This document shows positions 6,713 to 57,138 of a DNA stretch of 64,000 nt, one piece after another. Both the position numbers and the translations under genes were made by a program. The stretch is from Candidatus Yanofskybacteria bacterium. Its GTDB lineage: Bacteria > Patescibacteriota > Minisyncoccia > 2-02-FULL-40-12 > GWA2-44-9. The notes beneath the pieces are model-generated. The model saw nothing but the letters and a program-made list of their open reading frames with translations, ran no database searches and was not told the DNA's origin. How positions within the stretch are numbered: position 1 is the stretch's first letter; every line of letters begins with the position of its first letter. The stretch is taken from contig DOSG01000002.1 of the NCBI GenBank assembly GCA_003514055.1, positions 79,825 to 143,824 on the forward strand, given 5' to 3'.

Positions 6713-6725
6713 CCGAGACAACTCG

Positions 6726-6770
6726 TCTCAAATCAAATGGCGGCCTTTGGCCGCCATTTGATTTGAGACC
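6726..6770 (+). terminator. Long perfect hairpin after rpoD (tctcaaatcaaatggcggcc-tttg-ggccgccatttgatttgaga)
   Basis: 20-bp perfect inverted repeat; no T-run follows, so the terminator role is inferred. Confidence 0.4.
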
Positions 6771-6858: not shown

Positions 6859-7387
6859 GTGGAGACTATTCCTTCGAAATAGCGCTATAATGTTATTAAT
6901 GAAGGATAAAAGAACCTATGCCGATCGTCGCGAGGAATTGATAAAAGCGGTCGCCAAAAGGCGACGCAAAGTCAAAAGTCTAGCGATAGAATATAAGGGT
7001 GGCAAATGCCAAGTTTGTGGATATTGTAAGTATCAAGGAGCTCTTGATATGCACCACATATCTGATAAGCAATTTGGCATCGGAGATAAAGGATATACGA
7101 GATCTTGGGAAAAGATTAAACAAGAACTTGATAAATGTATCCTTGTCTGCGCAAATTGTCATCGTGAGATAGAAGGCGGCATAACGCAGCTTTCCGATCG
7201 AAAGACGGATTGAAACTTTTCGGGATAACGGTGAAGCCCTAGTCCGCCGACTGGTGGATGGGTAATACCGTGGGAACCTCGTAAATTTTACGAGGGCGCC
7301 GTAGAGACTAGATACCGAAACGCCTAAATCGTAAGGTAAGATAGGGCGAAGATATAGTCCACCCCGTGTCGTAAGACATGGATTACG
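6859..7387 (+). mobile_element. Group I self-splicing intron (approximate boundaries) with an ORF in its 5' part
   Basis: Conserved core elements in the expected order: R-like gtagagactaga (~7296-7307), S-like aagatatagtcc (~7341-7352). P8-like hairpin cgccta...tagggcg between them. P9-like GNRA hairpin ccgtgtc-gtaa-gacatgg, then G before the 3' exon. Confidence 0.6.
6890..7213 (+). CDS. HNH homing endonuclease (intron-encoded)
   Basis: CQVCGYC...DMHHISDK...N...VCANCH pattern (CxxC...HH...N...CxxCH); 107 aa; lies entirely inside the intron. Confidence 0.75.
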   Translation: MLLMKDKRTYADRREELIKAVAKRRRKVKSLAIEYKGGKCQVCGYCKYQGALDMHHISDKQFGIGDKGYTRSWEKIKQELDKCILVCANCHREIEGGITQLSDRKTD

Positions 7388-9011
7388 TGTAAGGAGAAGG
7401 TTCCAGGTTCGAGTCCTGGTCGCGGAGCAGAGGGTTCAAACCAGCGCCCGAAAGGGCGTTTTGGTTTGGATTAGAGCCACTTTTTGGCGGTTCTAAAGTT
7501 TGTTTTTGTAGTTTTGCCTGTTCTGCCCTTTCTTTTATCCTTAATATCGGTTTTTTATAGAATTTGCCCAATATCTCGCCGTTTAAAGTAAGGTTCGAGA
7601 ATATAAGCGACATGAACTCTCTTTTTGCCGGTATGTCGTCTTTTAGTGATTCGTATATTTCTTTTGATTTTCTGGCCAATTCCATAAAAGAACTACCGAG
7701 TAAGAGGAAATGAGTATTGTTTTGTTTTAATTTTGATTTTTCATCGATAACCCTTTGTTGATCCTGGTCCCACGTTTGGATATTACGGTTGTATTGGTCT
7801 TCAGATATCTTGCCGTCTAGCTTGTCTATATAGCAACGATCCTTGCGTTGCTGAAGAATCTGGAATTGTCGATCCAGATTCTCGGTTGCATTTTCAAAGT
7901 AATTAACTTCTTCCCGATGATTGCTTTTTAGTACTTCCTGGACCAGGGCAATTTCGTCCGGATCAAGCCCTTGGTGGAACCAGTCGAATATCTCCTTGGC
8001 CTGGGCCTCTATCCGGTCCTCACGTGCGAATTTTAGGCCCCTACAACCCTTATAGCCGTTACATCGGTAATAGGTTCGCCCTTTATGTATCTCACCACAT
8101 ACGGTGCCACCACAGGCCTTACAGTAAACCAACTGCTTAAAGAGGTGGAAGTGCTTCCTGTGTTTAGGCGTTGTTTTGGAATGCATGAGGGACTGCACCT
8201 GGTCAAATAACTCTTTCGATATCAATGCCGGGTGCTTGGCCGGATAGATAACACCTTTCCAAACCATCGAACCGTAGTAAAAGGGATCAGACAAAAGTTC
8301 TGCAATCCGGCTTTTAAGTATCTTTCGGCCGGACTCATTTCTTAAACCTTCTCGATATAACAGCTCAACAAGTGATTTTAGTGAATGCTGACCGGAAGCA
8401 TACAATTCAAACATACGACGAGCATACGGCGATTTATTCTCATCAACTATGTGGATCTTCCTGCCCTTTTCTCCGATGGTCTTATAGCCGATAGGGGGCC
8501 TAGTGGGAAGCCAGCCCTCTTTCAGTTTTTGTGCCTGGCCCTTTTTAACCTCCTCGGACAGGTTGTTTGAGTAAAACCTAGCAATAGCAATTTTCATATC
8601 CCATACCAGATTCTCGTGGGCCTTGGTATTCTTATTTGCTATGAAGTTCTCTTTTACGAAGTGTACTTTTCGGTTTTCATTCTCAAAAACCCAATCGCCC
8701 GCTATAATTGCTTCTTTTTGATTTCGAGTCATCCGATCGATTTTCTCGCATAAGATGTTGCCAGTATTATGGTCAACAGCATAATCAATCATCTGCTTAA
8801 ATATCTTTCGTGTCTGTTTTCCGCTTGCTGATTCTGGTACAGAGAACTCCTTAACGATCTTAAGGTTTTTGGAAGCAGCATAAGTCCTGAGCAACTCCGA
8901 TTGCGCGGCTAGGGAATACCCTTCTTCTGCCTGTTCTTTAGTGGATACCCGGCAATATAGAATTGCACAGTCGACTCTTATTCTTTGTATTTTTTGGTTT
9001 TCGGAAGCCAT
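7383..9011 (-). CDS. Large serine recombinase / integrase
   Basis: N-terminal resolvase catalytic domain (AILYCRVSTKEQ, YSLAAQ); recombinase domain; Zn-ribbon CKACGGTVCG...YYRCNGYKGC; coiled-coil C-terminus; 3' end overlaps the tRNA 3' exon on the opposite strand. Confidence 0.85.
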   Translation of the reverse strand: MASENQKIQRIRVDCAILYCRVSTKEQAEEGYSLAAQSELLRTYAASKNLKIVKEFSVPESASGKQTRKIFKQMIDYAVDHNTGNILCEKIDRMTRNQKEAIIAGDWVFENENRKVHFVKENFIANKNTKAHENLVWDMKIAIARFYSNNLSEEVKKGQAQKLKEGWLPTRPPIGYKTIGEKGRKIHIVDENKSPYARRMFELYASGQHSLKSLVELLYREGLRNESGRKILKSRIAELLSDPFYYGSMVWKGVIYPAKHPALISKELFDQVQSLMHSKTTPKHRKHFHLFKQLVYCKACGGTVCGEIHKGRTYYRCNGYKGCRGLKFAREDRIEAQAKEIFDWFHQGLDPDEIALVQEVLKSNHREEVNYFENATENLDRQFQILQQRKDRCYIDKLDGKISEDQYNRNIQTWDQDQQRVIDEKSKLKQNNTHFLLLGSSFMELARKSKEIYESLKDDIPAKREFMSLIFSNLTLNGEILGKFYKKPILRIKERAEQAKLQKQTLEPPKSGSNPNQNALSGAGLNPLLRDQDSNLEPSPYT

Positions 9012-9350: not shown

Positions 9351-9749
9351 TTATAGGGGCTGTGAATTTTTATTTACACGTCTATCAACTACGCCGGTCT
9401 TATCCACAAATACCAGTGGTCTATATACGCAGACTGATCCATTTGTTGCTCTCTGGCTTTCTAGAAACCCCTTCTTAACGATTTTCTTTATGTTATTCAA
9501 GATGGTAATCCTGCTATTTTTTGAATTTAGGCCGATATCTTTTGCGATAGTATTGTGACTTACTCTGCACTGCCCCTTATTAAAAGTTCTCATAAGTATA
9601 GTTGCGTAGACTCTCATCTCTGAGTTTGTGAGTCCGCTACCCTTTATGATTTGATTAGGGACCATTGTAAACCCAAGCTCCTCCCATTTTTTAAGGCCTA
9701 ACCTTGATATTAGTTTTTGCAGAGCTATAGTTCGTCCTATTTGTTGCAT
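9351..9749 (-). CDS. Winged-helix/HTH DNA-binding protein (Rep- or repressor-like)
   Basis: HTH-like stretch SHNTIAKDIGLNSKNSRITILNNIKKIVKKGFLE; lies next to the recombinase. Confidence 0.4.
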   Translation of the reverse strand: MQQIGRTIALQKLISRLGLKKWEELGFTMVPNQIIKGSGLTNSEMRVYATILMRTFNKGQCRVSHNTIAKDIGLNSKNSRITILNNIKKIVKKGFLESQRATNGSVCVYRPLVFVDKTGVVDRRVNKNSQPL

Positions 9750-10802: not shown

Positions 10803-11076
10803 AACCGTAGCGATTTTTAGTCAATTTTTCAAGTAGAGCAAGACCTTTTAATCATTGAGTGTTTGTGGTAAATTTAGCGTAACAATTCAGCCTAAACCAA
10901 TCGGGGCAACCTGATTAGCATGGCATCAAATACCGACGAAGATACTGAACCCATCGTTCAGGCTCCTTCGTCGGTCCATACCCGAAAGGGTGTGGGAGAG
11001 TGAAAGCTCTCGGCCTAGCGGTGGGTTTAGTGTTATACAAAACCCTGAGTCCCCATTAGCCGAGGCAAAATATACC

Positions 11077-13747: not shown

Positions 13748-14885
13748 GAACCTTGATCGTAAAGTCGTACTCTCCAGAGTCATCGTATTTTTTGCCGAAC
13801 ATTCTAGCCTGCCGCACTTTTTTAAAAGGAGAGTAGCTTTCTTTTATTAAACTAAGTTTTTGATTGCTCCTTTTTATGCTTTTCTGGATAATTTTTCGCA
13901 AAGGGTAATTATCTTTTGTGGATTGACCTATTCTACATACTATAATCCCATCTTTACTCATTATTTTAATAAGTGACTTCCATGTGTCAGAAAGAAAATC
14001 TATATATTTTTCTTGAGATGCAATTCTGTCATCTTTGGTTATCTTGCCTCGTGATGGAAATGGCTCGAATCCTAAGAACCATAGCCTTAGCCACTGGTCT
14101 TCCTCGTAAGATGTTATTTTTAAATATGGCGGAGACATTACTACTAGCGCGGCTTTCTTACTGGTGATCTTCTTTATGTTTCTATCAATATCTCTAACAT
14201 CTCCTAAGATACAATGCCCACGAGATTTAAATTTATGCTGTTTAGAGTTTGATAGTCTGAAATTTGTCCTGTCTCGTAAAACAGAGAAGGTGTCTATATG
14301 AGGAGCCTTCATTTTATTTTTGTGCCAGAATCTAACTGAGTAGCCTGGCTTCGGGCAATACGTATGGGGCAGGTTATTGCTTAAGTAAACCTTTTTTGTT
14401 TTTTGTGTTTCCCCGTGCAAGTAGCTAAGACATAATGTTTTAATAAAAAGACCCTCCTTTGTTTGCTCTTTTTTAAGTCGGTTCCTTAACCATAAAATCT
14501 GAAGTAGGGTTTTGCTATAGTATGCATGGCGGAAAAAAAGCGGCAACCTGGAAGCTTCTTCTCTGATAGAATTCTTATCGGCCGACTCAAACTCCTTCTC
14601 TAGTTTTTCGATGTATTTTAAGCAGGTAGCCAGTTTAATGGGCCTTGTTTTTGCTTGAGTAATCGCAAACGCCACAGGGTTTATATCATTGGCTATCGCC
14701 GCTCTTCCCAGTATTCTTGCTTCCAACAAGGTGGTTCCTCTACCTGAAAAGGGGTCTATAACTAAATCTCCTGGCTTTGAATGTTTTAAGATGGCGTCTC
14801 TAGCAAATTCTGGAGGGAACATGGCAAAATAAGGGCATAGTGCATGCATTGCATCATTGTAAGTTATTGAGGATATAATTTTCAT
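13740..14885 (-). CDS. DNA methyltransferase (N6-adenine or N4-cytosine, amino-MTase)
   Basis: AdoMet motif I DLVIDPFSGRGTT near the N-terminus and catalytic motif IV SPPY (VVMSPPYL) about 210 aa downstream. Confidence 0.8.
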   Translation of the reverse strand: MKIISSITYNDAMHALCPYFAMFPPEFARDAILKHSKPGDLVIDPFSGRGTTLLEARILGRAAIANDINPVAFAITQAKTRPIKLATCLKYIEKLEKEFESADKNSIREEASRLPLFFRHAYYSKTLLQILWLRNRLKKEQTKEGLFIKTLCLSYLHGETQKTKKVYLSNNLPHTYCPKPGYSVRFWHKNKMKAPHIDTFSVLRDRTNFRLSNSKQHKFKSRGHCILGDVRDIDRNIKKITSKKAALVVMSPPYLKITSYEEDQWLRLWFLGFEPFPSRGKITKDDRIASQEKYIDFLSDTWKSLIKIMSKDGIIVCRIGQSTKDNYPLRKIIQKSIKRSNQKLSLIKESYSPFKKVRQARMFGKKYDDSGEYDFTIKVLK

Positions 14886-15147
14886 TCCTGCTTTAAATTT
14901 AGCAAATTTATGAGACCTTGGCCAGAGTGGGTTAACAACAGGTGAAATTAAAGAAATCTATTCAATTTTTTTTGTAGTAAATCCAGGTCTCCGAATTCTT
15001 CGACCCAATCAATCTGTCTGAAATCGTCCTTCAGTGCGAGCTAGTAGCGCTGTTATAATGAGAGCCAGCATTATCTGACTTTTTAGTTATAACAAGTATG
15101 GACGGTAGAGCTAACTTCTGATAACCTTATCGCATTCCATCAGAAGG

Positions 15148-15756
15148 TTGAGACCTATGCGACTAATTATCGGCACCACAAATGAGGCCAAGGTTAAGCA
15201 AATTAAAGGAGCCTTGCTGCCACTGAAATTTCAAGTTGATGGCGTCAAAGATAAGAGTGTTCTTCCTGAAGTAATAGAGGATGGTGCGACTGCTCAAGAT
15301 AACGCCAGGAAGAAAGCCGTCGCATATGCCAAGGTATTGGGCGCAACAGTTTTATCAATGGATAACGCCCTATTTATTGATGGTCTGAACGAGAAAGAGC
15401 AGCCTGGCATTAATGTCCGGAGAATAAATAGTCGAGATGACCGTTCGGATGACCAAGAATTATTGAACCACTATAGTTCCTTAATCAGAAGGCTCGGAGA
15501 AAAAGTCGGGGGGCATTGGGAGTTTGCGATATGCGTAGCGACTCCAAGCGGCGAGACTCGTGAGACAACGATCATATCGCCAAGATTGTTTGTTGCTCAG
15601 TCGAGTTCGAAGATAGTACCAGGCTATCCGCTTGAGTCGATTCAAATTGAACCAGAGAGTGGAAAGTATATCTCCGAAATGAGCCAAGACGAACAGGACG
15701 TGTTTTGGCAGAAAGCAATCGGGAAAGAACTATGCAACTTTGTCGGATCATTGTAA
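15148..15756 (+). CDS. Ham1/RdgB-like non-canonical purine NTP pyrophosphatase (tentative)
   Basis: N-terminus RLIIGTTNEAKVKQIKGAL resembles the RdgB/Ham1 start; about 200 aa. Confidence 0.5.
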   Translation: MRPMRLIIGTTNEAKVKQIKGALLPLKFQVDGVKDKSVLPEVIEDGATAQDNARKKAVAYAKVLGATVLSMDNALFIDGLNEKEQPGINVRRINSRDDRSDDQELLNHYSSLIRRLGEKVGGHWEFAICVATPSGETRETTIISPRLFVAQSSSKIVPGYPLESIQIEPESGKYISEMSQDEQDVFWQKAIGKELCNFVGSL

Positions 15757-15770
15757 TCCCAGGCCCATTC

Positions 15771-15900
15771 GCCGACTAACGTCGGCTTTTTTATTCCAAA
15801 CAGATTCTGACATCAATGCATCAACGGAGCTAGCAGCGCTGCTATACGAAAGTTGACAAATGCCACGAGGGTGGTATTTTAGACTTAGTTTGCTCACAAA
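15771..15900 (+). promoter_or_regulatory. Intergenic module A: hairpin terminator (gccgactaacgtcggc+T7), conserved element ccaaacagattctgacatcaatgcatcaacggagc, then promoter TTGACA / ATGCCAC-gagg-GTGGTAT / TATTTTAG
   Basis: a homologous module occurs at 22086-22185. Confidence 0.6.
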
Positions 15901-15909
15901 GGATAGGCA

Positions 15910-16113
15910 ATGGCCAAACTGTCCATTAACGATATAAGACGGCGGATTAAACAAGCATCAGAGACCGGGCAAGCCTCGTGCGACATCGGGATTGAAGGGG
16001 CATTTCTAGTTCTCTTTGCTGGGATGTCCTTGAATGAAAGAAAACATATATCGAAACGAAAAAGTGAGGGGCGAAGAAGGCCAAACTCAAGCTCAAAGAA
16101 AAGAGCTCGCTGA
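15910..16113 (+). CDS. Small basic protein (67 aa), hypothetical
   Basis: ORF directly downstream of the operator-bearing promoter. Confidence 0.35.
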   Translation: MAKLSINDIRRRIKQASETGQASCDIGIEGAFLVLFAGMSLNERKHISKRKSEGRRRPNSSSKKRAR

Positions 16114-16228
16114 CCGAGAACGGTCATTTTTTAATCCAAACAGATCCTGGCATTCTTTACTCAGCGGAGCACCTATAAAAAGCCAGATAATACTGGCTTT
16201 TTGGTTGGACCTAATGTGGACGTTAGAA

Positions 16229-16927
16229 CTAATCTATCCTTTTCAAGACAAGGTCGCTGAACATACCCGGTATATTTTCGATTACCCACCCTGGCATATA
16301 TTTTTCAAACATAATTTTAAAATACTCCGAGCGTTCTTTCGCCTTACCTTTCCTGCGTAATTTATCGGGTAAAAAATCCTTATCAAATAGTGAATAATAT
16401 AATTCGAACACTTCGTGAGGCAAATGTCCGCTTTTTATTTCATCTCGAGTCAATTTATTGTTGGGATTTGCCAGAATCTCTTCTATGCACCTCCCTACGT
16501 CGCTCCCATAATAAGCAGTATCTGCCGGTGATATGCCGATTGCTTTAATTGATTTCAAGGAAGCCGCGGCTTCAATAAAAGAAGAGATGGCATTCCGAAG
16601 TATCGTCTGATCTTCTGGGCTTAGCCTTATCCGGGCGTATGCATATTCTCTAGTTTTAAATAGGAAGCTGTAACTATTGCCATAGCCTTCGGAAAGTCGG
16701 AATATATACTTTAGCCCGCCAATCGTCTTTTGTAAGGTATAGCGATTGTATGGTTGCTCCTCGCGTCGGAATGCGAAGGGGTAGGTCGTTGAATGATAAA
16801 TCTTTCCTTCTTCTAACTCTGGAAGGTTTTCTAACTCCAATTCTCGTTCGCTTTCGACGACTATGGGGGAGTTCGGCTTATGCTCTATAATCTTTTTGGC
16901 TTCGTTACTATTCCATTCTTGGCTCAT
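16229..16927 (-). CDS. Hypothetical protein (232 aa)
   Basis: long ORF on the minus strand inside the cassette region. Confidence 0.5.
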   Translation of the reverse strand: MSQEWNSNEAKKIIEHKPNSPIVVESERELELENLPELEEGKIYHSTTYPFAFRREEQPYNRYTLQKTIGGLKYIFRLSEGYGNSYSFLFKTREYAYARIRLSPEDQTILRNAISSFIEAAASLKSIKAIGISPADTAYYGSDVGRCIEEILANPNNKLTRDEIKSGHLPHEVFELYYSLFDKDFLPDKLRRKGKAKERSEYFKIMFEKYMPGWVIENIPGMFSDLVLKRID

Positions 16928-17099
16928 GATAATAATTCTACTATTAAATTTATTAAATGGTAGGGACGGCTAGATTAAATATTCAGATATTCTCTCAAGT
17001 CGGGGATATGCAAAAAATTCTCTTTTTTGATCACAGTTCTAACGTCATTCACAATGCGGAGCATTTTTCAGAGAGTGGCTTAAAACACCACTTTTTGAT

Positions 17100-17221
17100 A
17101 TTGCAAATATTAGGATTTTGTGCTATAATATAGACAATGTTGCACCATCTAATCTGGATGCGTGCAGGCAGACCGTAAACCAACGATCCAGCACAGCTGG
17201 ACGGATGGAAGGAGAGCGGCT
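17100..17221 (+). promoter_or_regulatory. Promoter TTGCAAAT...TGCTATAAT plus a conserved 52-nt leader (hairpin ccagc-aca-gctgg; RBS ggaaggagag) ahead of paralogue 1
   Basis: nearly identical to 23146-23264. Confidence 0.55.
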
Positions 17222-17650
17222 ATGGCAACTATGGTGTTGCTCGACAACAATGGCGAGAAAGTACGGACTCTCGGGTCGATCATCAATCCGAACCCGGATC
17301 TGGTCATCCCGCAGGGGTGGATGCTCAGTTGGGAAAATCAGTTCATGGAGGTCACTGCGACCGATCGTCTGAAAAATGCCGTGCTTACGCACGGGAAGGC
17401 CCGCGTCCTGGTCAATGTCGTGATGCAGACGCTCGTGGTCAGAATCGAGAGCCCGAATGTGAGGGATCTCGTGGAGGCAATCGACCTCATGGTTCAGTAC
17501 GTCGGGGGCGAGGTCGCTACGTTCAGCCCCTCCGCCGCCAACAATTCGTTCGTCGGCGGCATCAAGAACGACCTCGTCTTTCTTCGAAACATGGCGGTAC
17601 GGGCCATTCGCTCGCTACGGCAGCGAACTGGCTTCAAGATCGCGCGCTAA
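17222..17650 (+). CDS. GC-rich hypothetical protein, paralogue 1 (~142 aa)
   Basis: start MATMVLLDNNGEK after the RBS; 180 nt identical to the 23218-23398 copy, then diverged; own big-stem terminator downstream. Confidence 0.6.
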   Translation: MATMVLLDNNGEKVRTLGSIINPNPDLVIPQGWMLSWENQFMEVTATDRLKNAVLTHGKARVLVNVVMQTLVVRIESPNVRDLVEAIDLMVQYVGGEVATFSPSAANNSFVGGIKNDLVFLRNMAVRAIRSLRQRTGFKIAR

Positions 17651-17855
17651 GCGCTCACACCTCGCATCGAGACAGGGGATCCCAATCCTCGTCTGGTGCG
17701 GGGTCCTTTGTTTTTATACGTATCCAAGACTAATTAAATCTCCCCGAATTCTTACTCAATCCAGCGTTCTGAATGCGTTCCGTAGGCAGAGCAAAGCTTG
17801 ACAATAGCACTAGATGGTGCTATTGTTATTTTAACCTTAAAACTAGGAGAGTGTC

Positions 17856-18059
17856 ATGCGAATAGTTGCCGATGCGTCAAAACGTACATTGAAATTAACT
17901 GCCGAAACTGATATTGACGAGGATGAATTGATAAGAGCGAACTACGTAGTGGTAAGTTCCAAAAAGTGGTACCAATTTTGGAAAAAATCACCAACCGTTA
18001 AATTGACAATGGCTGGAGATAAGAATAAATATCTTCAGGCAATAGAAATCTCTTTCTAG
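17856..18059 (+). CDS. Small hypothetical protein (67 aa)
   Basis: promoter TTGACA-ATAGCAC-N6-GTGCTAT upstream; RBS aggaga; terminator gacccacagtgtgggtc follows. Confidence 0.4.
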   Translation: MRIVADASKRTLKLTAETDIDEDELIRANYVVVSSKKWYQFWKKSPTVKLTMAGDKNKYLQAIEISF

Positions 18060-18127
18060 GTGACCCACAGTGTGGGTCTTTCTTTTGCCTCAAAACAGTC
18101 TCTAACATCAAAGCGTTCGGGGAGTTA

Positions 18128-18162
18128 ACTTGATTATATCACGGAAACGTGGTATAATTATT
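18128..18162 (+). promoter_or_regulatory. Promoter TTGATT-N17-TGgTATAAT (extended -10)
   Basis: acttgattatatcacggaaacgtggtataattat; near-duplicate at 19808-19842. Confidence 0.55.
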
Positions 18163-18197
18163 CTAGTTCTCAAAAACCCAAGAAAGGAGTCAGTATA

Positions 18198-19322
18198 ATG
18201 AGTCTGAAACTGCGTCGGAGAGATAGACTATGGGTCATAACCCAAGGCCTGCCGCACGCTGTCGTGGCGGAAGTCCTCCTCGATCCTTGGGATCAGGTGG
18301 GCGAAGTCGTTCTGTATGCAGATTCCTCCGAGCAAGTTCAGCTCGAGGTTCTGCGTCTTGCGGCCTCACATGTTCGACAGTACGTTCGACATCGGACGGC
18401 TTCGGCTTTCGGTGGCCTCATGGTTGCCGAACATCGTAATCACAACCTGACGCGAGATGATTCCGACCGTTTCATGGATTTCTCGACGATCCCGTCGGAG
18501 ATTCAGGAGATGAATCGGGAGACGCTCACAAGAGGACTTCGCGAACTCCACATCAGTGTCTTTGCTGCCGTCCATCGGCGAGCCGAAGATGCAATCAGCG
18601 CCGCCATCGAACAAGTTGGCGTCGCTGGTCTCAAGTACGAAGTGATTCCCCAAAGGATGATCTTCGATACCGAGTTGATGGTTCGTTTCACCGTCGAAGA
18701 GCCGAACAGCTTCACCTTCTGGCACAGTCAGTCCAGGCCTGGTGGCGGGTTCGATCTCTACATCGTCCCGGCTTATCATCCCGTGATGAACGGGAAAGAG
18801 TCAGTTGGAATGGTCAACGGCGCTACAGATGCTTACATTCGCGGCAACGCGGTGAGAAGCATCTACTGCCCGGAGGACGCACAAGCAACAGATCCCAGTA
18901 AGAACTTCGGTACGAGCTGGAATCACGTGAAGCATCCGTTCTACGCGACAGGTCGTTCGATGGCGGTGAAGTTGATCACCACGAAGGTTCGTTCAGCCGA
19001 AAGCATGGAGGAGCTCACTCAGCTTCTGCGTGCTGCTCTCGGTCTGGACAACAAGTACGTGGACATCAGCGGCGGTTTCAATGCTCCGCTAAAGTGCGGG
19101 TACAATCGCATCGTTGAACTCGGCATCAGATCGCCCTATCCGCAAGCCGAGTACAGGCGCGGCGGTAACATCACTCGCGGTTCCGAACAACATTGCGTAT
19201 GGTCTTATCGAGTCCTCAAGGAAGAGGGGCAACTCGAGAAGGCCTACATTCCTTCCTGGTTTATCAAAGAAGGCTGGCTGAAGATCTACGAAGGCGCTGA
19301 AGAACGCCACGGTCTCTACTGA
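18198..19322 (+). CDS. GC-rich hypothetical protein (374 aa)
   Basis: strong RBS aaaggagtcagtataATG; GC content far above the surrounding DNA; terminator 19347-19396. Confidence 0.6.
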   Translation: MSLKLRRRDRLWVITQGLPHAVVAEVLLDPWDQVGEVVLYADSSEQVQLEVLRLAASHVRQYVRHRTASAFGGLMVAEHRNHNLTRDDSDRFMDFSTIPSEIQEMNRETLTRGLRELHISVFAAVHRRAEDAISAAIEQVGVAGLKYEVIPQRMIFDTELMVRFTVEEPNSFTFWHSQSRPGGGFDLYIVPAYHPVMNGKESVGMVNGATDAYIRGNAVRSIYCPEDAQATDPSKNFGTSWNHVKHPFYATGRSMAVKLITTKVRSAESMEELTQLLRAALGLDNKYVDISGGFNAPLKCGYNRIVELGIRSPYPQAEYRRGGNITRGSEQHCVWSYRVLKEEGQLEKAYIPSWFIKEGWLKIYEGAEERHGLY

Positions 19323-19494
19323 TGAGCAAGCTCAGAAATCACCTGCCCGCGAGAGCCCGCACATTACGTGCCCGCCTCGCGGGCTCTCTCTTTTTATACA
19401 AACGCATATTTTATTAAATCATTGTGAATACTAACCCAATCCAGCGTTCTGAATGCGTTCCGTAGGCAGAGCTGACAGCATTATTGCAAGTATA

Positions 19495-19524
19495 TTGACA
19501 AATACCACGCGAGTGGTATTCTAG
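19495..19524 (+). promoter_or_regulatory. Promoter with operator: TTGACA-a-ATACCAC-gcga-GTGGTAT-TCTAG
   Basis: perfect 7-bp inverted repeat between -35 and -10. Confidence 0.6.
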
Positions 19525-19556
19525 GTCAAGTTGATCGTTCTCTGAGGTAAGAGGCG

Positions 19557-19742
19557 ATGAATAAAAAACCACGTTCACCATATCGCAAGAAGCCTTTGCC
19601 TTGTCCTTTTGGATGTCCTGGGTGTTTAGGGAGATTTTTGGGCAAAAAATGTGAATGTTCGAATACGCTGTCAACGTGTCAGCGTGCTCGCAAAGGCGAG
19701 TGCAATGAGTGCCATGCCTGTCGTTCATGTCGAGATGCATGA
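19557..19742 (+). CDS. Cysteine-rich small peptide (61 aa, 12 Cys)
   Basis: CPFGCPGCLGRFLGKKCECSNTLSTCQRARKGECNECHACRSC; RBS gaggtaagagg; terminator caaaccgccatattggcggttt follows. Confidence 0.45.
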   Translation: MNKKPRSPYRKKPLPCPFGCPGCLGRFLGKKCECSNTLSTCQRARKGECNECHACRSCRDA

Positions 19743-19856
19743 TCAAACCGCCATATTGGCGGTTTTTATTTTCTAGATAGATCCTGATTTTATCCAGCGG
19801 AGTAGCACTTGATTATATCGTGTAAATGTGGTATAATTACTATACGGGGTGGCAAA

Positions 19857-20138
19857 ATGAATAAGGATACCGGGTGGATGATTGCTTCCGGGGTGGTAGG
19901 CTTCTTGTTCTTCTTGATCGCAAATTTCACAAACTTCTTTGCTGGCGCTAGTGTTCTGGCCGGCTGTCTCCAGCTTTGTGTTAATGCTTTTGTGTTCGTT
20001 GTCTGGGCCAGAGCATTCATGCGAAGCCATGGTTTTAAGAAGTTTGTGGCTTTCTTCGGAGTGATCGTCCCCGTCGGTATGGCGGGCGTTACTCTTTGGA
20101 GAATTCTAATCCCTGCAATCACAGCATCATTTGTTTGA
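19857..20138 (+). CDS. Small membrane protein (93 aa)
   Basis: two predicted TM segments; extended -10 promoter 19808-19842; terminator gaccgagaacggtc+T7 follows. Confidence 0.5.
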   Translation: MNKDTGWMIASGVVGFLFFLIANFTNFFAGASVLAGCLQLCVNAFVFVVWARAFMRSHGFKKFVAFFGVIVPVGMAGVTLWRILIPAITASFV

Positions 20139-20265
20139 TGCTCGCTGACCGAGAACGGTCTTTTTTTGTTGCAAAATAGGTTCTGATATTGATGCGTCAG
20201 CGAAGTTGGCGGCATTGCTACGTGAAAGCCAGACAAAGCTGGCTTTTTGGTTGAATCTGGTATAG

Positions 20266-20760
20266 ATGCCGGGGCTATGCTACGATTGGATCATGAATAT
20301 CATGCGGATATTATTGTATACTCTGGTTGCACTATTATTATGCTTGGTGGTCGTCTGGCTTGCTGTTGGAATTTGGAATGTCGATAAAGTTTACGGAAAG
20401 AAGATGTTTGGCTACCAAGAAGACAAAATTTGTATTGAATGTTTCAATGGTACTCGTACGGGTACTTGTCCACAACTGATGGATGATAAGCTCACATATC
20501 CACGCGCCGCTGAATCAACAGAAATGATGGATTCGGCGCCTAATGATAGTTCGGATTATTCCGATAGCCATGTTATTAGAAATGGGTTTTGCACTCAATT
20601 TCACTCTACATTAACTACCGAAGGGCAGGATTATATTAAAAGATTCCAGACGATGCCAATACCGGAGAAGAGTTATGCTGAGTCGCTTGGGGTAGCTTGG
20701 CGATATGTGGGAGATTTTTTTGTTGCTATTATCTGTCGCACCATTGGATGTAAAATGTAG
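20266..20760 (+). CDS. Membrane-anchored Cys-containing hypothetical protein (164 aa)
   Basis: N-terminal TM segment; terminator 20808-20850. Confidence 0.45.
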   Translation: MPGLCYDWIMNIMRILLYTLVALLLCLVVVWLAVGIWNVDKVYGKKMFGYQEDKICIECFNGTRTGTCPQLMDDKLTYPRAAESTEMMDSAPNDSSDYSDSHVIRNGFCTQFHSTLTTEGQDYIKRFQTMPIPEKSYAESLGVAWRYVGDFFVAIICRTIGCKM

Positions 20761-20912
20761 TTTATTATTTAATCCAAGTAGACTCTGGCCTCATTCACCA
20801 GACCGATCAAACTAAAACACCGTATCTTATGCGGTGTTTTAGTTTGATCGGTCACTTATTCGTCGTAGAGTAGGCCACGTATGGCATACTCTTAACTCGG
20901 GAATATAGATGT

Positions 20913-22040
20913 TTATCTCAGCTCTTTGATCATCCGTAGCTTCAAGCTTACGGCCGTTCCAATTGCAGTCAGGCTGAACAGAGAAATAACGGCATACCCT
21001 ACGAATGGAATGAACCAGAGGATAATATATGCGGCCACGCCAATTAACATAGTCTTCCAGCTAACGTCGAAATTCGTTTTCTTAGTAAGCCATTTATATA
21101 GAAGTGAACCTATGAATATCGGAGTTAAGGCACAGCTAAGGATACTAAGAGCAACAATACTTATGATGCCTAAAATTCCAAGCGGAATTCCAACGACCGT
21201 AACCAGAAGTAGAATAGATATTACGGGTAAGATAATAACAGTGACGAACCCCTTTCCAAGTGCGGCCCAGGGAGACTTGAAGGCAGTCTCAACTGCTTCA
21301 ACGCTGTAGCGTCTGAACATGATACCCATTAAGAATACTAGGACAATCATCATCAAGGCCTTCATGATCAACCAGAATGATATGAAAGCTTTGATAGGTC
21401 GACTTTCGTTACGCATCGCTTTCGATTCATAAGAAACTGTGCCAAGAATTTTTGCCTCGCTATCTCTAGACATTTCATTGGGTGAACGATAGGTAAGATT
21501 GCCGCTAATAACAGCTTTCGGTCCCAATTTCAATTGAGTGGCATCGACAATAATATCTCCAGTCACGGTGGAATTTATATATACCAATGCTCCTGCTATC
21601 CGAGCCTTACCTCGAACAGAAGCCTCGACATTAATTGAATTGCCGCCAAGTAAGAGGTCGCCACCCACTTGGCCACCGGAAACCGTAATCTGATTGCCGC
21701 CTATCATGGCATCGCCGCCAACGTTGCCCTGAATAAAAACAGTATTGCCGATAATCTTAACGTCGTCGTCGACATTGGCAGTAATGACAACATTGTTGCC
21801 AGCTGAAAAGAGATCTTGGCTGACCTGGTTACTTATGAGGACGGATTGACCTGCCGCAAAGAGATCTCCGATTATTGTACCAGTGACGGATACGCTACTG
21901 CCGGCGATATACAGATCATCGCTGACTATCTCTGACGAGCCGACGGTTGGGTTGCTTCCGCTCGTAAATGTCGCACCAAGAGCTACCGCTGGCAACAAAA
22001 GTGCCATGGCAACAAAGAGTATAATTTTTTGTTTGTTCAT
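20913..22040 (-). CDS. Bactofilin-like (beta-helical repeat) protein with signal peptide and C-terminal TM domain
   Basis: repeated G-rich beta-solenoid units (IIGDLFAAGQSV.., VGGDAMIGGNQITVSGG.., GDIIVDA..) followed by four TM helices. Confidence 0.5.
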   Translation of the reverse strand: MNKQKIILFVAMALLLPAVALGATFTSGSNPTVGSSEIVSDDLYIAGSSVSVTGTIIGDLFAAGQSVLISNQVSQDLFSAGNNVVITANVDDDVKIIGNTVFIQGNVGGDAMIGGNQITVSGGQVGGDLLLGGNSINVEASVRGKARIAGALVYINSTVTGDIIVDATQLKLGPKAVISGNLTYRSPNEMSRDSEAKILGTVSYESKAMRNESRPIKAFISFWLIMKALMMIVLVFLMGIMFRRYSVEAVETAFKSPWAALGKGFVTVIILPVISILLLVTVVGIPLGILGIISIVALSILSCALTPIFIGSLLYKWLTKKTNFDVSWKTMLIGVAAYIILWFIPFVGYAVISLFSLTAIGTAVSLKLRMIKELR

Positions 22041-22152
22041 ATCTATACTATAGCAAGTATCAGCAAATTTTCCAAAAATTCTCTAGCCGACTAGCGTCGG
22101 TTTTTTATTCCCAACAGATTTTGGCCTCATTTGCTCAGCGTGATGCACTTGA

Positions 22153-22185
22153 TTGACAGAACGCGATTTCGGTGGTATTATTAAT
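22153..22185 (+). promoter_or_regulatory. Promoter TTGACA...GTGGTAT half-site...TATTATTAAT
   Basis: member of the operator-promoter family; left half-site degenerate. Confidence 0.45.
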
Positions 22186-22211
22186 ATATCCTGAAATCTG
22201 GAGGTTGTGCC

Positions 22212-22421
22212 ATGCCCGACATTCGTAAGTGTGCAGTCTGTCGCGTTGAGTTTGACTTCGACGAGTCCGGGCTAGAGGGTCCAAACGACGTCGTGGTCTG
22301 CGGCGCGGTCTGTGCCAAAAAGTCTGCCGCCAGTCGTGGAAGCGAATATGTGATCCACGACGGCGAGGGGGCGGTAGTTGAGACGAACATCACTCCTGGC
22401 ATCAAGACTCACCGCTGGTAA
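22212..22421 (+). CDS. GC-rich small Cys protein (zinc-ribbon-like CxxC...CxxxC), 69 aa
   Basis: CAVCRVEF...VVVCGAVC; RBS ggagg. Confidence 0.45.
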   Translation: MPDIRKCAVCRVEFDFDESGLEGPNDVVVCGAVCAKKSAASRGSEYVIHDGEGAVVETNITPGIKTHRW

Positions 22422-22462
22422 TCTTATCTCGAACGCCACATCAAGGAACAGGAGGAGTGCAA

Positions 22463-22678
22463 ATGAAAGTCACGGTTCTCGAGAAACCGACCGGAGGAAC
22501 GTGGTCACGATCTGAGGTTGAGGCTATCATGGGGACAATGACCGAAGTCGAACAGCTACCGAGGCTGCCGAATCGTATCGTGCTCATGAACAAGCCGCTC
22601 CGTGGTTCGATCTCGTGCGCTCTGGGCCACACCAACTACGTCGCGCGAGAAGTGGACTACCACGATCGCTGGGCCTAG
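22463..22678 (+). CDS. GC-rich small hypothetical protein (72 aa)
   Basis: RBS aggagg; terminator 22683-22740. Confidence 0.4.
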   Translation: MKVTVLEKPTGGTWSRSEVEAIMGTMTEVEQLPRLPNRIVLMNKPLRGSISCALGHTNYVAREVDYHDRWA

Positions 22679-22861
22679 CTATCGGCCCGCCTACTTGGCG
22701 ACGGAAACCCGTCGACTCAAGTCGGCGGGCTTCTTTTTTTATCCATATCCAGCTGAGTCTTTTTGGGTGTTTGCCGAGGTTGTCGATCTGAATATGTTCT
22801 GTGAGCGAAGCAAGGCATGCGGATGGTTTACGAATATCGTTTTAATTGATATGCTAAAGTT

Positions 22862-23062
22862 ATGCAAAAAATAGCTACAAAAGTATTCGTCGGGGCGTCT
22901 GTCGCTTTCGGTATTATCGGACTGTCGATGGTTGTGACAACATCTCCTGAAAGCAACGGCCCGAATGTTGTTCTGTTGAAACTTCTCTTCACTAGCGTCA
23001 TTGTCATTTTAACCTCGTTCGCTCTAAGTGTAGCCAGTAAGTATCTCAACAATAAGTCCTAA
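22862..23062 (+). CDS. Small membrane protein (66 aa)
   Basis: two hydrophobic helices; terminator aaaagtgcc-ttaaat-gggcactttttgg. Confidence 0.4.
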   Translation: MQKIATKVFVGASVAFGIIGLSMVVTTSPESNGPNVVLLKLLFTSVIVILTSFALSVASKYLNNKS

Positions 23063-23264
23063 TCTCAGTTAGGTTATAGAATTGATGCCCAAGAGGAGAG
23101 GGGCGCGTCTTTCAAAAAGTGCCTTAAATGGGCACTTTTTGGTATTGCAAACGTTACAGTTTCGTGCTATAATATAAATAATGTTGTGGCGTCTAACCTG
23201 GGCGTCGCGAACAGACCGTAAACCAACGATCCAGCACAGCTGGACGGATGGAAGGAGAGCGGCT

Positions 23265-23693
23265 ATGGCAACTATGGTGTTGCTCGACAACAATGGCGAG
23301 AAAGTACGGACTCTCGGGTCGATCATCAATCCGAACCCGGATCTGGTCATCCCGCAGGGGTGGATGCTCAGTTGGGAAAATCAGTTCATGGAGGTCCTCG
23401 CAAAGGACCACCTGAACAACGCCGTACTAACGCATGGGAAGGCTCTCGTTCTGGTCACCGCTATGATGAGTACGGTTGTGGTCCGGATTGAGAGCCCGAA
23501 CGTGAAGGACCTGGTCGAGGCGATCGACCTCGTGACCCGGTACCTTGGCGGCGAGGTTGCCACCTTCAGCCCCAACGCCGCCAACAATTCGTTCATTGGC
23601 GGTATCAAGAATGACCTCATCTTCCTTTGGGGGAAGACGACTCAGGCCATTCGCTCGCTACGGCAGCGGATTGGTTTCAAGATCGCACGCTAA
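23265..23693 (+). CDS. GC-rich hypothetical protein, paralogue 2 (~142 aa)
   Basis: same promoter, leader and first ~45 codons as 17222-17650. Confidence 0.6.
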   Translation: MATMVLLDNNGEKVRTLGSIINPNPDLVIPQGWMLSWENQFMEVLAKDHLNNAVLTHGKALVLVTAMMSTVVVRIESPNVKDLVEAIDLVTRYLGGEVATFSPNAANNSFIGGIKNDLIFLWGKTTQAIRSLRQRIGFKIAR

Positions 23694-23771
23694 GCGTGCA
23701 TGCCTCGCATCGAGACAGGGGACCTCAATCCTTGTCTAGTGCGAGGCCCTTTGTTTTTATTCGTACCGAAT

Positions 23772-25073
23772 TTATTTTAGGAACCAAGCCTTAACGACTT
23801 CTTCAGATGGTTTGTTGCGGAAGCCGGCCGATATCGATATCAGGGGCCTTACTTCTGGATCGAGAGCATCATCCCAGGCGAAATTACCGACGTTAATCCT
23901 GACGATATTCGTTGCATCTCGGACCACCGAAAAGAAGGAATTAAAAGCTTTGGCTTGCTCGTTGTAATCACTTTCAAGGGCTCTGATCGATGGGTTTTTG
24001 GAATCGAGATATTCGACTGGGCCAGCAAAAGTGCCGTCTGTATAGCTGGATGGTGCGAAGAATAGAGATACCTTTATTCCCTTCGCAATGGCCTTTCGGT
24101 TAACATCTTCGATCATTCTTCCCATCGCCGCATCGAATGATTCTTCTCCGTCTATTTTGTACTTGCCAGGTATAGCGTATATTTTTATCTCAATCACGTC
24201 GGCTTCCTTGTAATAATCATATTTTGTCCAATCTTCCTTTCCGTTTTTGCCGTCGATAAACCCGTATATATTCAGATCAGTCATTATCTCTCCTTTAAAA
24301 TTCTCCTTGACCTTAGATATGAGTTTTTTCCATAATCTATTCGCAAGCTCCTCGTGTCTAGTAAACGTTGGGTCCTGGAACATGGGCGATATGGACATAA
24401 TATCGACTCCAGCTTCCTGGTACATCTTACCCTTCTCTGATAATCGCGATTCCCATTTTTCGAAGTAATTGGAAATCCATTCTTCCGTATGTGAACTGTT
24501 GAAGTCTTCGTAATCTTTCGCGACGTCTGTGGTAATATCTCCTTTTATCCCAGACAATATGAATTTCCCGATATTCACGAAGGCCAGATTTCTTTTTATG
24601 CCAAGTTTCATCCCGCGTGAATGGGCGGCTTCTACGAGCTTCTCCAGATCCTCGGAGTTTATTGATTCGTCACGCATATCGTTCCAGAATGTTTCGTCAG
24701 CTAACTGATATGAAGTACTTTTATAGTCTGTCTCGTCGTCATATAGAGCCCTGTCAAAATCGTGTATGAATATCTCTTTGGCGCCAAGAGTTCTTACTCG
24801 TTCGAATGAACTCTCAATATTGGCCTGCGTCGTTTCGAACATTCCCATATTGTAGTTTCGGCCCCATGTGTCGTACATATTAACCGCTTTTATTTGAGGC
24901 AGAGGGGATGGAGAAACCGATACTTCATATTTGTGTACTATAAATTCTCCACGGCACCAGGGAGGAGTCGGCCATGGTCCGACAGGTGGGCAGATATTGG
25001 AAGCGAACATCGCGCCGATTAGTAGAAGAAGGATCGCCGCGATGATCGCAAGATAGATAAAAGTTTTTCTCAT
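23772..25073 (-). CDS. Membrane-anchored glycoside-hydrolase-like (TIM-barrel) protein, tentative
   Basis: N-terminal TM segment; 433 aa; overall composition only, no specific motif confirmed. Confidence 0.35.
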   Translation of the reverse strand: MRKTFIYLAIIAAILLLLIGAMFASNICPPVGPWPTPPWCRGEFIVHKYEVSVSPSPLPQIKAVNMYDTWGRNYNMGMFETTQANIESSFERVRTLGAKEIFIHDFDRALYDDETDYKSTSYQLADETFWNDMRDESINSEDLEKLVEAAHSRGMKLGIKRNLAFVNIGKFILSGIKGDITTDVAKDYEDFNSSHTEEWISNYFEKWESRLSEKGKMYQEAGVDIMSISPMFQDPTFTRHEELANRLWKKLISKVKENFKGEIMTDLNIYGFIDGKNGKEDWTKYDYYKEADVIEIKIYAIPGKYKIDGEESFDAAMGRMIEDVNRKAIAKGIKVSLFFAPSSYTDGTFAGPVEYLDSKNPSIRALESDYNEQAKAFNSFFSVVRDATNIVRINVGNFAWDDALDPEVRPLISISAGFRNKPSEEVVKAWFLK

Positions 25074-36938: not shown

Positions 36939-37128
36939 TCGTCTACGCGACGGCTATCAGCCCCCGGGGGGTTCTACCCCCGGGGTTTTTGTTTACTAAA
37001 TAAATTGCCCAACGAGCGATCATATAAAAATATCTGGATTAATATCCGCGTATTTAGGAAGGAATAAAAAGATGATCCATGAGTGGATCATCTTTTTATT
37101 CCTGGGGAACTATAAACGAGTCTTTGTC

Positions 37129-45987: not shown

Positions 45988-46017
45988 TTGACGAATACCA
46001 CGTAGGTGGTATTTTAG
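45988..46017 (+). promoter_or_regulatory. Promoter with operator: TTGACG-a-ATACCAC-gtag-GTGGTAT-TTTAG
   Basis: same architecture as 15853-15880 and 19495-19524. Confidence 0.55.
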
Positions 46018-46085
46018 TTTAAGCTCATTATCGTGGAAGGCGAAGATTATGAAGACAATCGCAAATCCTTCTTTCGAGAAGACTT

Positions 46086-46415
46086 ATGGCACATAAGCCA
46101 ATTGCTCCTAGAGCCTCAAGGCGTGTAGGAAGTTTTTTGGTGATAATGATTACTAGAGCGATCAGCAGGTACATCGCTCAAGTGATTGAGGAAGAACCTC
46201 TAGTATTGAAAGTTGAAGAATCGGGGCCCTACTCTAGATTAAAAGGTGAAGACTTTGTAATAATGGAGAATGATTCTCTGCGAGCTCAAGGAGATGATGA
46301 GACTGCACAAGAACTTCTTCGAGAAGCGGTTCGACGTGGCAAACCGCTTCGTTCTGGCCTGAAAAGCCTAGGAGTTAAGAATGGAAAATTGCATGAGATT
46401 CTGCCAGTAGAGTAA
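46086..46415 (+). CDS. Hypothetical protein (109 aa)
   Basis: ORF downstream of the operator promoter; terminator 46432-46490. Confidence 0.4.
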   Translation: MAHKPIAPRASRRVGSFLVIMITRAISRYIAQVIEEEPLVLKVEESGPYSRLKGEDFVIMENDSLRAQGDDETAQELLREAVRRGKPLRSGLKSLGVKNGKLHEILPVE

Positions 46416-46703
46416 TCTCTTTTTTGTTGATGGGGTCCGTGCCCTGCATGCAAAAGGCTTTGCCTTTTGCATGCAGGGTCTTTTTGTTTCTATATTTGTG
46501 ATAGAATTATGTACATACTGAGTAGTTAATATTTAATGAAAAACTGGCTAAGATCTAACTCGCTAGGCATTCTATTAATTATTGTGGCCGTTGCCATTTT
46601 AGTTGGCATAGTTTTTTTGGCAACCAGTCGAAATTTATCTGCTGTGATTTTTTAATCGCCAACGGTTGCCAATAATTTAAAAAAACGGTAGACTGTTGAT
46701 ATT

Positions 46704-47194: not shown

Positions 47195-47370
47195 ACCGAT
47201 TTAAAAAACCAGCCCCCCAGTCGGGGGCTGGTTTTTTATTATCTAAAATTCGTCGAGATAGTAGTATCTATACAAGATTAGTGGAGCCGTCGGATATGAC
47301 GGCTTTTATGTTTAGGTGAGCCTTATTGATTCTTCTCGTGATAGTATTAGGATATATCTAGATAATTGGC

Positions 47371-47652: not shown

Positions 47653-47765
47653 CCACCTTGCCTAGGTGGTTTTATGTTTAACTGGTAGTATGTCGCAGTT
47701 TATGGCCAGATTTTTTATTTCATTGCGAGCCGCTTGTAATATAGAAATAACGTGGTATAATGCGG

Positions 47766-47843: not shown

Positions 47844-48359
47844 ATGGAAAGACTAAAACGGTTGATGGCCGAAGCCGAGGCTCTCATCATCGGGTCCGAT
47901 GATGAGCCGAATAGCGGCAAGAATTTCGATGACGTGGTCATCGGTGTCTTGCCGGATGGGCTGAAGAGGCTCGGTGTCCTCATCGGGCGCAAGTACGACC
48001 AGATCAAGGCGATGGTCAGGGAGGGTATCCACCTGTGTGACGCCGACGAGGGCCTTGAGCCCCACGAACACACGTCGGAACACAAGGAGTTCCACGCGAA
48101 GGTCCGCGCCGCCGAGGCGGAGCTGAAGTTCGTCAAGGATCTCTTCTGGGGTCTGGTGAAGATCGAATTCCCGGACGCCAACGACAAGGGAGAGCTGCTC
48201 GTTTGCATCGGCTTCGAGTTGGTGGCGAGGAAGAGCGAACCGAAACTCGACGGTTTGCGCCAGACACTGAATGCCATGGGCGTCGACTTCAAGGTTGTGC
48301 GTGCGTCTGTGGGCGACACGCCTCAGATCTTGGTGCCTGGATCCAAGGCCCGCAACTAG
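47844..48359 (+). CDS. GC-rich hypothetical protein (171 aa)
   Basis: RBS ggagga; hairpin terminator 48367-48420. Confidence 0.5.
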   Translation: MERLKRLMAEAEALIIGSDDEPNSGKNFDDVVIGVLPDGLKRLGVLIGRKYDQIKAMVREGIHLCDADEGLEPHEHTSEHKEFHAKVRAAEAELKFVKDLFWGLVKIEFPDANDKGELLVCIGFELVARKSEPKLDGLRQTLNAMGVDFKVVRASVGDTPQILVPGSKARN

Positions 48360-48507
48360 TCAGCGCGGGGTCTATTCAATCCCATGGTAGACGAAGCTTC
48401 GAGCTCCGTCTACCATGGGATTTTTACTTTTTAGGCTCATTTATGGACACGTATTGTAAAATGTGGGCTATTAGTGTAGTCTATGGCTATATAAATTAAA
48501 CAAAAAC

Positions 48508-49842: not shown

Positions 49843-49890
49843 TAATTAAGACAAACAAAAATACCACCGAGGTGGTATTTTTGTTTGTCT
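49843..49890 (+). terminator. Perfect 18-bp-arm hairpin (gacaaacaaaaataccac-cgag-gtggtatttttgtttgtc) whose tip is the ATACCAC-N4-GTGGTAT motif
   Basis: read directly from the sequence. Confidence 0.55.
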
Positions 49891-49952
49891 TAATATTATT
49901 TGGAAATAACGATAATTACTGGTAAATTAGTTATATAGATTAATATCTTTAC

Positions 49953-57039: not shown

Positions 57040-57138
57040 TAGCGAGTAAAACGCCGCCCCGCTTAGCGGGGCGGCGTTTTACTATTCTCTCCAATTGTTC
57101 TATATTCTCCCCAGATCATTTACAAGTAGGAGCTTGCC

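Follow-up and report, generated by a model that had tools for sequence, protein, structure and literature searches.

Why should the same palindrome be lodged between the −35 and −10 elements of one promoter after another, ahead of small genes without an assigned function? This question is raised by a 64-kb stretch of DNA from Candidatus Yanofskybacteria (hereafter, the window), in which several promoters carry the inverted repeat ATACCAC-N4-GTGGTAT. The source lineage belongs to the Parcubacteria, within the Candidate Phyla Radiation (CPR), and is represented by uncultivated organisms from groundwater and aquifer metagenomes. To our knowledge, CPR bacteria cannot be cultured alone, and we know of almost nothing on how they control transcription. 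Here, we describe the promoter element and its recurrence on related metagenome contigs (loci designated by L-numbers). With less than even confidence, we suggest that the element works as a switch within the core promoter, in the form of a hairpin or cruciform.

The palindrome is strongly overrepresented in the window. A search with ATACCACNNNNGTGGTAT, allowing up to two mismatches, returned four matches against the 0.09 expected, and none of 100 shuffled sequences reached four. These matches lie at 15860-15877 (one mismatch, ATGCCAC), 19502-19519, 45995-46012, and 49861-49878. In the first three, TTGACA or TTGACG plus one base precedes the left arm, and the right arm merges into TATTTT or TATTCT. 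The initial annotation of this DNA had placed these three copies between a −35 and a −10 element, and we find the same arrangement, with TTGAC(A/G) on one side and a TATTNT −10 on the other. Its variant at 17804 and its half-site at 22172 are also as it described them. The first is part of TTGACA-ATAGCAC-TAGATG-GTGCTAT-TGT (17798-17826), where the true complementarity is longer (ACAATAGCAC/GTGCTATTGT); the second is GTGGTAT without a left arm, and the orthologue of this promoter on L028 retains a 5-bp palindrome. Two further sites had been overlooked. One, at 18130-18160, reads TTGATT-ATATCACG-GAAA-CGTGGTAT-AAT, with a palindrome that covers both the −35 and the −10. The other, at 19809-19837, has arms that form eight Watson-Crick and five G.T pairs.

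The sites read as strong sigma-A-type promoters, with TTGACA, a spacer of 16-18 bp, and the TRTGn-extended −10 TATTNT. The −35 is TTGACA or TTGACG at 15853, 17798, 19495, 22153, and 45988, and TTGATT at 18130 and 19809. A promoter scan found a spacer of 16 or 17 bp and a TG before the −10 at all window sites, and likewise on the related loci; for the promoters at 15853, 19495, and 45988 it gave a 16-bp spacer together with the TG. These are the features of sigma-70/sigma-A extended −10 promoters: a near-TTGACA −35, a spacer of 16-18 bp, TANNNT, and TG one base upstream. A Shine-Dalgarno sequence and then a start codon come 30-45 nt downstream of TG-TATTNT, mostly 40-66 nt after the T of TTGACA. 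The opposite strand, read directly, has no usable −35, and we reject a bidirectional promoter.

The right arm, GTGGTAT, is this lineage’s ordinary −16/−10 element (TRTGn plus TAT). It also stands ahead of the −10 in promoters that have no left arm, at 22172, at 47752, and several times on the loci. The claim that it forms a special operator half is weakened by this, as it is a generic extended −10. The unusual part appears to be the left arm alone, which directly follows the −35 and is complementary to the right arm. An uptake-signal-like repeat was also considered and rejected, since the window has just 16 copies of GTGGTAT over its two strands, and half of these belong to the palindromes.

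The fourth match, at 49861-49878, differs from the others. As the initial annotation had said, it lies in a hairpin, of which it is the center. This hairpin (49845-49894) begins 15 nt past the ORF (open reading frame) at 48508-49830 and has no −35/−10 geometry; it reads as terminator-like rather than as a promoter. The proposed control of a GGDEF gene is not supported under this assignment, because a terminator-type hairpin demonstrates no link to that gene.

Contigs of related organisms carry about 60 further instances of this promoter architecture, and the earlier view that the sites are common to a set of small genes of unassigned function is upheld. The exact 26-nt pattern TTGACNAATRCCACNNNNGTGGTATT occurs in 49 stretches of metagenome contigs, at up to four per 6 kb. 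These represent 32 distinct promoter sequences, to which the window adds three. In 596 Gb of reference genomes, the pattern had only four hits, in unrelated Bacteroidota; we dismissed these. Three of the four come from apparently one homologous stretch that reads as coding. In about 58 kb from more distant relatives, reached via a SET-domain gene, there were zero ATACCAC-type promoters. Thus, the family seems to be confined to a narrow clade.

The carriers are chromosomal. Exact protein matches place the window in Candidatus Yanofskybacteria (NCBI record MGLH01000001.1). The window holds copA-like, dnaG, rpoD, TrpRS, sortase, and GGDEF genes, and the contigs that carry the pattern encode enolase, a penicillin-binding protein, ribosomal protein L21, RsgA, and transfer RNAs (tRNAs). 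A phage origin was rejected on several grounds. A megablast search with 14000-24000 (10 kb) against phage records gave zero matches; in a scan for the palindrome alone, matches on viral contigs were chance sites without TTGACA; and the loci encode chromosomal genes, with no convincing PHROG hits among cassette proteins.

What varies among these promoters is informative. Most sites have ATACCAC/GTGGTAT arms, and five or six have other arms that are complementary to each other. Compensated variants include ATACCGC/GCGGTAT, ATACACC/GGTGTAT, ATAGCAC/GTGCTAT, and ATGCTAC/GTAGTAT, and on L054 the wholly unrelated arms ATTACAT/ATGTAAT occupy the same slot. Across 28 distinct promoters, most pairs show several Watson-Crick types, and the pair at position −8 shows all four (A:T 8, C:G 6, T:A 3, and G:C 1). 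Thus, wherever the −10 hexamer is free to vary, it matches the bases behind the −35. Arms are 7-13 bp long, and the longer forms (10-13 bp) stretch from the ACA of TTGACA to the TGT of TATTGT. A perfect hairpin of 6 bp or more is found in 29 of the 57 TTGAC-N16/17-TAWNNT promoters that have an ORF downstream, compared with 0.37 expected from spacer shuffles.

These observations bear on the classical operator that the initial annotation had proposed. A dimeric repressor would bind the ATACCAC-N4-GTGGTAT duplex and occlude RNA polymerase, and the genes behind it would form one regulon. Much of the pattern fits: the inverted repeat overlaps the core promoter, with half-site centers 11 bp apart; about 80% of sites have identical arms; the site is common to many unrelated genes; and some sites (15860 and 22172 in the window, and 8511 on L032) have decayed in one arm only, as operators do. 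Although the overlap with the core promoter stands, the dimeric reading is weakened by arms that covary and by half-site spacing that is not fixed. The same arms occur with N4, N5, and N6 spacing, and complementarity runs through the center to the loop and outward by up to 13 bp, into the hexamers. Such latitude would be unexpected for a rigid dimeric repressor. It is further disfavored because its half-site would be identical to each strong −10 of the cell. In Pfam scans, neither the window nor the listed families (the first 25 of 103) from 132 locus proteins yielded a conserved repressor candidate. The window has a weak HTH_36 hit (9351-9749) and two extracytoplasmic function (ECF) sigma factors, and the listed locus families include CopG antitoxin, HU, and DksA/TraR. 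We consider a classical operator rather unlikely.

The loops are equally uneven. Over 46 sites, they range from 3 to 7 nt, and 40 are tetraloops; such a preference for a 4-nt center would also suit an operator. However, the center is strand asymmetric. On the sense strand, 27 of the 40 tetraloops are GNNA (26 of them GNRA) and none is TNNC, and a GNNA loop closed by C:G (C-GNNA-G) is present at 24 of the 46 sites. Folded as single-stranded DNA, the palindromes give −5.6 to −12.3 kcal/mol (z-scores from −3.8 to −9.9). The structural features of a cruciform-silenced promoter, a perfect inverted repeat between −35 and −10 with a stable loop, are thus present, with stems of 7-13 bp. Complementarity over sequence, flexible loops, variable arms, and a stable loop specific to one strand together favor a self-pairing element over a rigid dimer operator.

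Self-pairing could also act in RNA. Transcribed from upstream, the palindrome might serve as a terminator, insulator, or 3′ stabilizer of the preceding gene or tRNA, and, the genome being compact, overlap the promoter of the gene that follows. The sense-strand GNRA loops and G.U-compatible mismatches are consistent with this, and the predicted RNA folds (−10.8 to −18.4 kcal/mol) are at least as stable as the cassettes’ own terminators. Four sites begin 4-9 nt after a tRNA gene, and about 10 lie within 40 nt of an upstream stop codon. Terminator-like hairpins with the same core at their center lie at 49845-49894 and, behind tRNA-Glu, on L036 and L046. Longer variants have U-rich tails, and a stem with a U-tract is present at 49845-49894 and 18131-18160. 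Nevertheless, the commonest form has at most four U residues after the stem, three of them paired, and a terminator scan does not call it. Four of five window sites already have a separate canonical terminator about 50-110 nt upstream, and at some sites the upstream gene is divergent or there is none. The locking of the hairpin to the −35 and −10 hexamers would also be left unexplained. We regard an RNA-level element as improbable. An Rfam scan of the window found a single family, LOOT RNA, which lies elsewhere, and a known RNA family was rejected as the identity of the palindrome.

A further alternative is that the palindrome has no function of its own. One promoter module might have spread by duplication and recombination, with the palindrome kept by descent and template-switch (quasipalindrome) correction rather than by selection. 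Consistent with this, a stretch of about 45 bp, which takes in the loop and the first transcribed bases, is near-identical before unrelated genes; copies of one cassette in three or four contexts are homologous from TTGACA to past the terminator; and 7 of 57 positions differ within one orthologous pair of promoters, comparable to its gene’s overall divergence. The promoter at 22153 has lost its left arm while its gene is still intact. Against shared descent, the −10 shifts from TATAAT to TATTGT, TATTCT, or TATTAT exactly as pairing needs, at a cost to the promoter consensus. The one-sided enrichment of the stable loop and the unrelated arms on L054 are likewise not expected from it. We consider this alternative unlikely.

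We therefore return to the hairpin or cruciform switch. In this proposal, the property conserved would be intrastrand pairing rather than sequence. Negative supercoiling would cause the palindrome to extrude as a small hairpin or cruciform, which the stable C-GNNA-G loop on the sense strand would aid. Extrusion would take the −10, and the −35/−10 geometry, away from RNA polymerase. The promoter would then be a built-in switch, dependent on DNA topology or on a structure-binding protein. There is precedent for these steps. When a 5-7 bp hairpin from a phage N4 promoter was set into rrnB P1, between its −35 and −10, it extruded in vivo and abolished activity, which novobiocin restored (PMC4496689). 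Extrusion in that system requires a C:G closing pair and 5′G and 3′A loop bases, whereas the stem bases are free if paired (PMC4496689). A natural Vibrio promoter is also repressed by a cruciform (PMC10325908).

Several considerations weigh against such a switch. Most copies are near-identical, possibly through recent shared descent, and the loop and arm statistics are inflated to that extent. The metagenome scan demanded exact arms, so the arm invariance it reports is partly ascertainment bias; the only ones free of it are the window sites and the extra sites from the loci. Apparent tolerance of G.T on the sense strand is confounded, as RNA polymerase constrains the right arm, while any transition in the A/C-rich left arm yields G.T automatically; a strand test based on these wobbles was dropped for that reason. 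Covariation of the arms could stem from template-switch homogenization, without function, and GNRA loops and G.U pairs are equally compatible with an RNA hairpin. Furthermore, stems of 7-9 bp are about as short as extrusion allows, and palindromes between −35 and −10 elements are usually repressor operators.

The palindromic promoters head discrete gene cassettes (Table 1). Each window site precedes a Shine-Dalgarno sequence, an ORF of 61-374 amino acids (aa) without a Pfam hit, and an intrinsic terminator. On the loci, about 30 unrelated orphan ORFs lie downstream; they encode 40-180 aa, many are Cys-rich, and none has a meaningful hit in Pfam or PHROG.

Table 1. Palindromic promoters, cassette genes, and related hairpins in the window.
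Feature	Position	Strand	Details
Palindromic promoter	15853-15880	+	−35 TTGACA 15853-15858; −10 TATTTT 15875-15880
Arms of the 15853 promoter	ATGCCAC 15860-15866, GTGGTAT 15871-15877	+	One G.T; loop GAGG
67-aa orphan ORF and intrinsic terminator	15910-16126	+	ORF 15910-16113; terminator 16111-16126; no Pfam hit
Palindromic promoter, compensated arms	17798-17826	+	TTGACA; −10 TATTGT 17821-17826; 17-bp spacer
67-aa orphan ORF and terminator	17856-18078	+	ORF 17856-18059; terminator 18062-18078
Palindromic promoter	18130-18160	+	TTGATT-N17-TATAAT within 13-pair palindrome TGATTATATCACG-GAAA-CGTGGTATAATTA
374-aa orphan ORF and terminator	18198-19384	+	ORF 18198-19322; terminator 19370-19384
Palindromic promoter	19495-19522	+	TTGACA; −10 TATTCT 19517-19522; loop GCGA
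Arms of the 19495 promoter	ATACCAC 19502-19508, GTGGTAT 19513-19519	+	
61-aa Cys-rich orphan ORF and terminator	19557-19765	+	ORF 19557-19742; terminator 19745-19765
Related promoter, degenerate left arm	19809-19837	+	TTGATT-N17-GTGGTATAAT; drives ORF 19857-20138
Right-arm-only promoter	22153-22181	+	GTGGTAT 22172-22178; drives ORF 22212-22421
Palindromic promoter	45988-46015	+	TTGACG; arms 45995-46001, 46006-46012; loop GTAG; −10 TATTTT
Transcription unit of the 45988 promoter	46049-46479	+	Leader ORF; 109-aa ORF 46086-46415; terminator hairpin 46441-46479
Long perfect hairpin, ~50 nt	49845-49894	+	Center ATACCAC-CGAG-GTGGTAT (49861-49878)

The small cassette ORFs are genuine; their homologues on other contigs differ chiefly at third codon positions. 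For the ORF at 15910-16113, a homologue is 89.6% identical with third-codon-position bias, and this bias favors the + strand. Public gene calls omit this ORF and that at 19557-19742, and place longer opposite-strand ORFs there. Behind the 45988 promoter, a 15-codon leader ORF (46049-46096) has a good Shine-Dalgarno sequence and runs into the start of the 109-aa ORF; this overlap suggests translational coupling. Another cassette gene family, with proteins beginning MAEVQ (L035, L039, L042, L052, and L055), has His/Cys-rich ends that are conserved and, at the center, an Ala/Gln-rich repeat (AWQAYDEA-like) that differs in copy number between strains.

Where one gene family occurs in three or four genomic contexts, homology starts at TTGACA and stops just past the terminator. 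The moving or recombining unit is therefore the promoter, gene, and terminator together, and cassettes of this kind are scattered and shuffled among Candidatus Yanofskybacteria genomes. On L046 (53-830) and L036 (3748-4060), cassettes stand directly behind tRNA-Glu, and the tRNA 3′ end recurs as a direct repeat (cgtcggggctgca) ahead of the next cassette’s TTGACA, resembling integrase attachment sites. The recombinases that we observed were a large serine recombinase in the window (7383-9011) and, among the locus proteins, one Phage_integrase-family (tyrosine) hit. Ends of the IS200/IS605 or repetitive extragenic palindromic (REP) type were rejected, as cassettes have dissimilar hairpins at their right ends and no transposase was observed.

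Between a cassette terminator and the next promoter lies a junction element of about 35 nt (consensus roughly ACAGATTCTGACATCAATGCGTCAGCGGAGC). It is found in the window at 15795-15840, 16130-16175, 17033-17070, 17758-17793, 18092-18129, 19436-19471, and 20167-20205, and also on L024, L026, L027, L032, and L061. It is sometimes followed by the 14-bp perfect palindrome TAGCAGCGCTGCTA (15833-15846). A segment of about 660 bp is duplicated at 17066-17722 and 23110-23765 (84% identical) and holds an orphan gene of 162/170 aa with its own promoter, TTGCAA-N17-TGCTATAAT. Nearly perfect palindromes of 37-53 nt also lie behind chromosomal genes such as rpoD, a cold-shock gene, and the ORF at 47844 (2453-2493, 6725-6769, 20801-20853, 37060-37103, 46442-46478, 47202-47238, 48378-48422, and 57045-57083). 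Several of these lack a clear U-tract, whereas cassette genes use a short GC stem and a T-run.

The region adjoining the serine recombinase gene also encodes a winged helix-turn-helix (wHTH) protein, a ParB-like protein, and a DNA methylase, and contains the LOOT RNA (Rfam RF03000; 76 bits, gathering score 46) at 10889-11011 on the + strand. In a related genome, a SET-domain gene lies about 650 bp from rpoD-dnaG-PGA_cap (L079, 10001-12349). In the window, rpoD and the SET gene are 44 kb apart (comparison span, 6712-50959). This difference suggests large insertions or a rearrangement, starting at the serine recombinase.

Taken as a whole, the material allows a broader proposal, which we hold as doubtful. 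Candidatus Yanofskybacteria might possess natural, multicopy, self-silencing promoters, in which a spacer hairpin with a hyper-stable loop allows supercoiling, and not a repressor, to gate mobile promoter-ORFan-terminator cassettes. The palindrome could also be a cassette recombination site.

The element matters under more than one reading. It is a clearly delimited cis-element, common to dozens of orphan genes and testable in a heterologous host, and its pattern of variation points to DNA structure over a sequence-specific repressor. If the hairpin reading is true, these promoters would correspond, in nature, to the engineered N4-hairpin/rrnB promoter and would be among the very few cases of cruciform-based gene control, here genome-wide. 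If the palindrome is an ordinary operator, it would still define the largest regulon yet visible in the lineage. In either case, the cassettes are a source of small proteins that are un- or mis-annotated.

Promoter-embedded palindromes are already known as a kind; no account of this particular motif turned up when the literature was searched by its sequence and by topic. Known operators between −35 and −10 include the Gram-positive LexA box CGAAC-N4-GTTCG, the phage cI/Cro operators, and the KorA/KorB operators, which are repeated in the promoters of IncP plasmids. The palindrome resembles such repressor operators in being an inverted repeat over the core promoter that is repeated before many genes, and its 4-nt center recalls the LexA box. 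It differs in that one arm is a generic −10, the arms covary, spacing and arm length vary, and a regulator was not found among the proteins scanned. The LexA (Cheo) box, which lies upstream of recA, lexA, or uvr genes, also has a different sequence, and the genes downstream here are orphan small ORFs without Pfam hits rather than DNA-repair genes. A comparative-genomics paper (PMC7739468) cites the work on Patescibacteria LexA among lineages whose LexA evolved to recognize a direct repeat, not a palindrome.

As small accessory genes in discrete, shuffled units, the cassettes resemble phage morons and integron cassettes. Morons carry their own promoter and terminator; the Yanofskybacteria cassettes, in contrast, are chromosomal and have no phage genes. 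Integron cassettes are promoterless, require IntI, and have an attC at the 3′ end, whose imperfect palindromes fold as single strands, whereas the cassettes here have their own promoter at the 5′ end. An integron integrase was not identified in the window or among the locus proteins, and no attC model was run.

Among structural switches, the Vibrio parahaemolyticus exsA promoter (PMC10325908) is likewise natural and hidden by a cruciform. It is a single locus at which HlyU, a wHTH protein, relieves the structure, whereas the promoters here number in the dozens and have no known protein. The promoters used by the virion RNA polymerase of N4 and the engineered rrnB P1 (PMC4496689) share with our sites a small hairpin, a stable C:G-closed loop with 5′G and 3′A, and stem bases that are free while pairing is kept. 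Unlike N4 promoters, which have 3-nt loops, the sites described here mostly have 4-nt loops, full sigma-70 hexamers, and the loop on the non-template strand. No N4-like polymerase was seen, 14000-24000 has no phage match, there are no phage families, and a scan of viral contigs for the palindrome alone gave no site in a promoter context. In the engineered rrnB P1, a hairpin between −35 and −10 silences a sigma-70 promoter in a gyrase-dependent manner (PMC4496689); the Yanofskybacteria arrangement differs from it in being natural and present in many copies.

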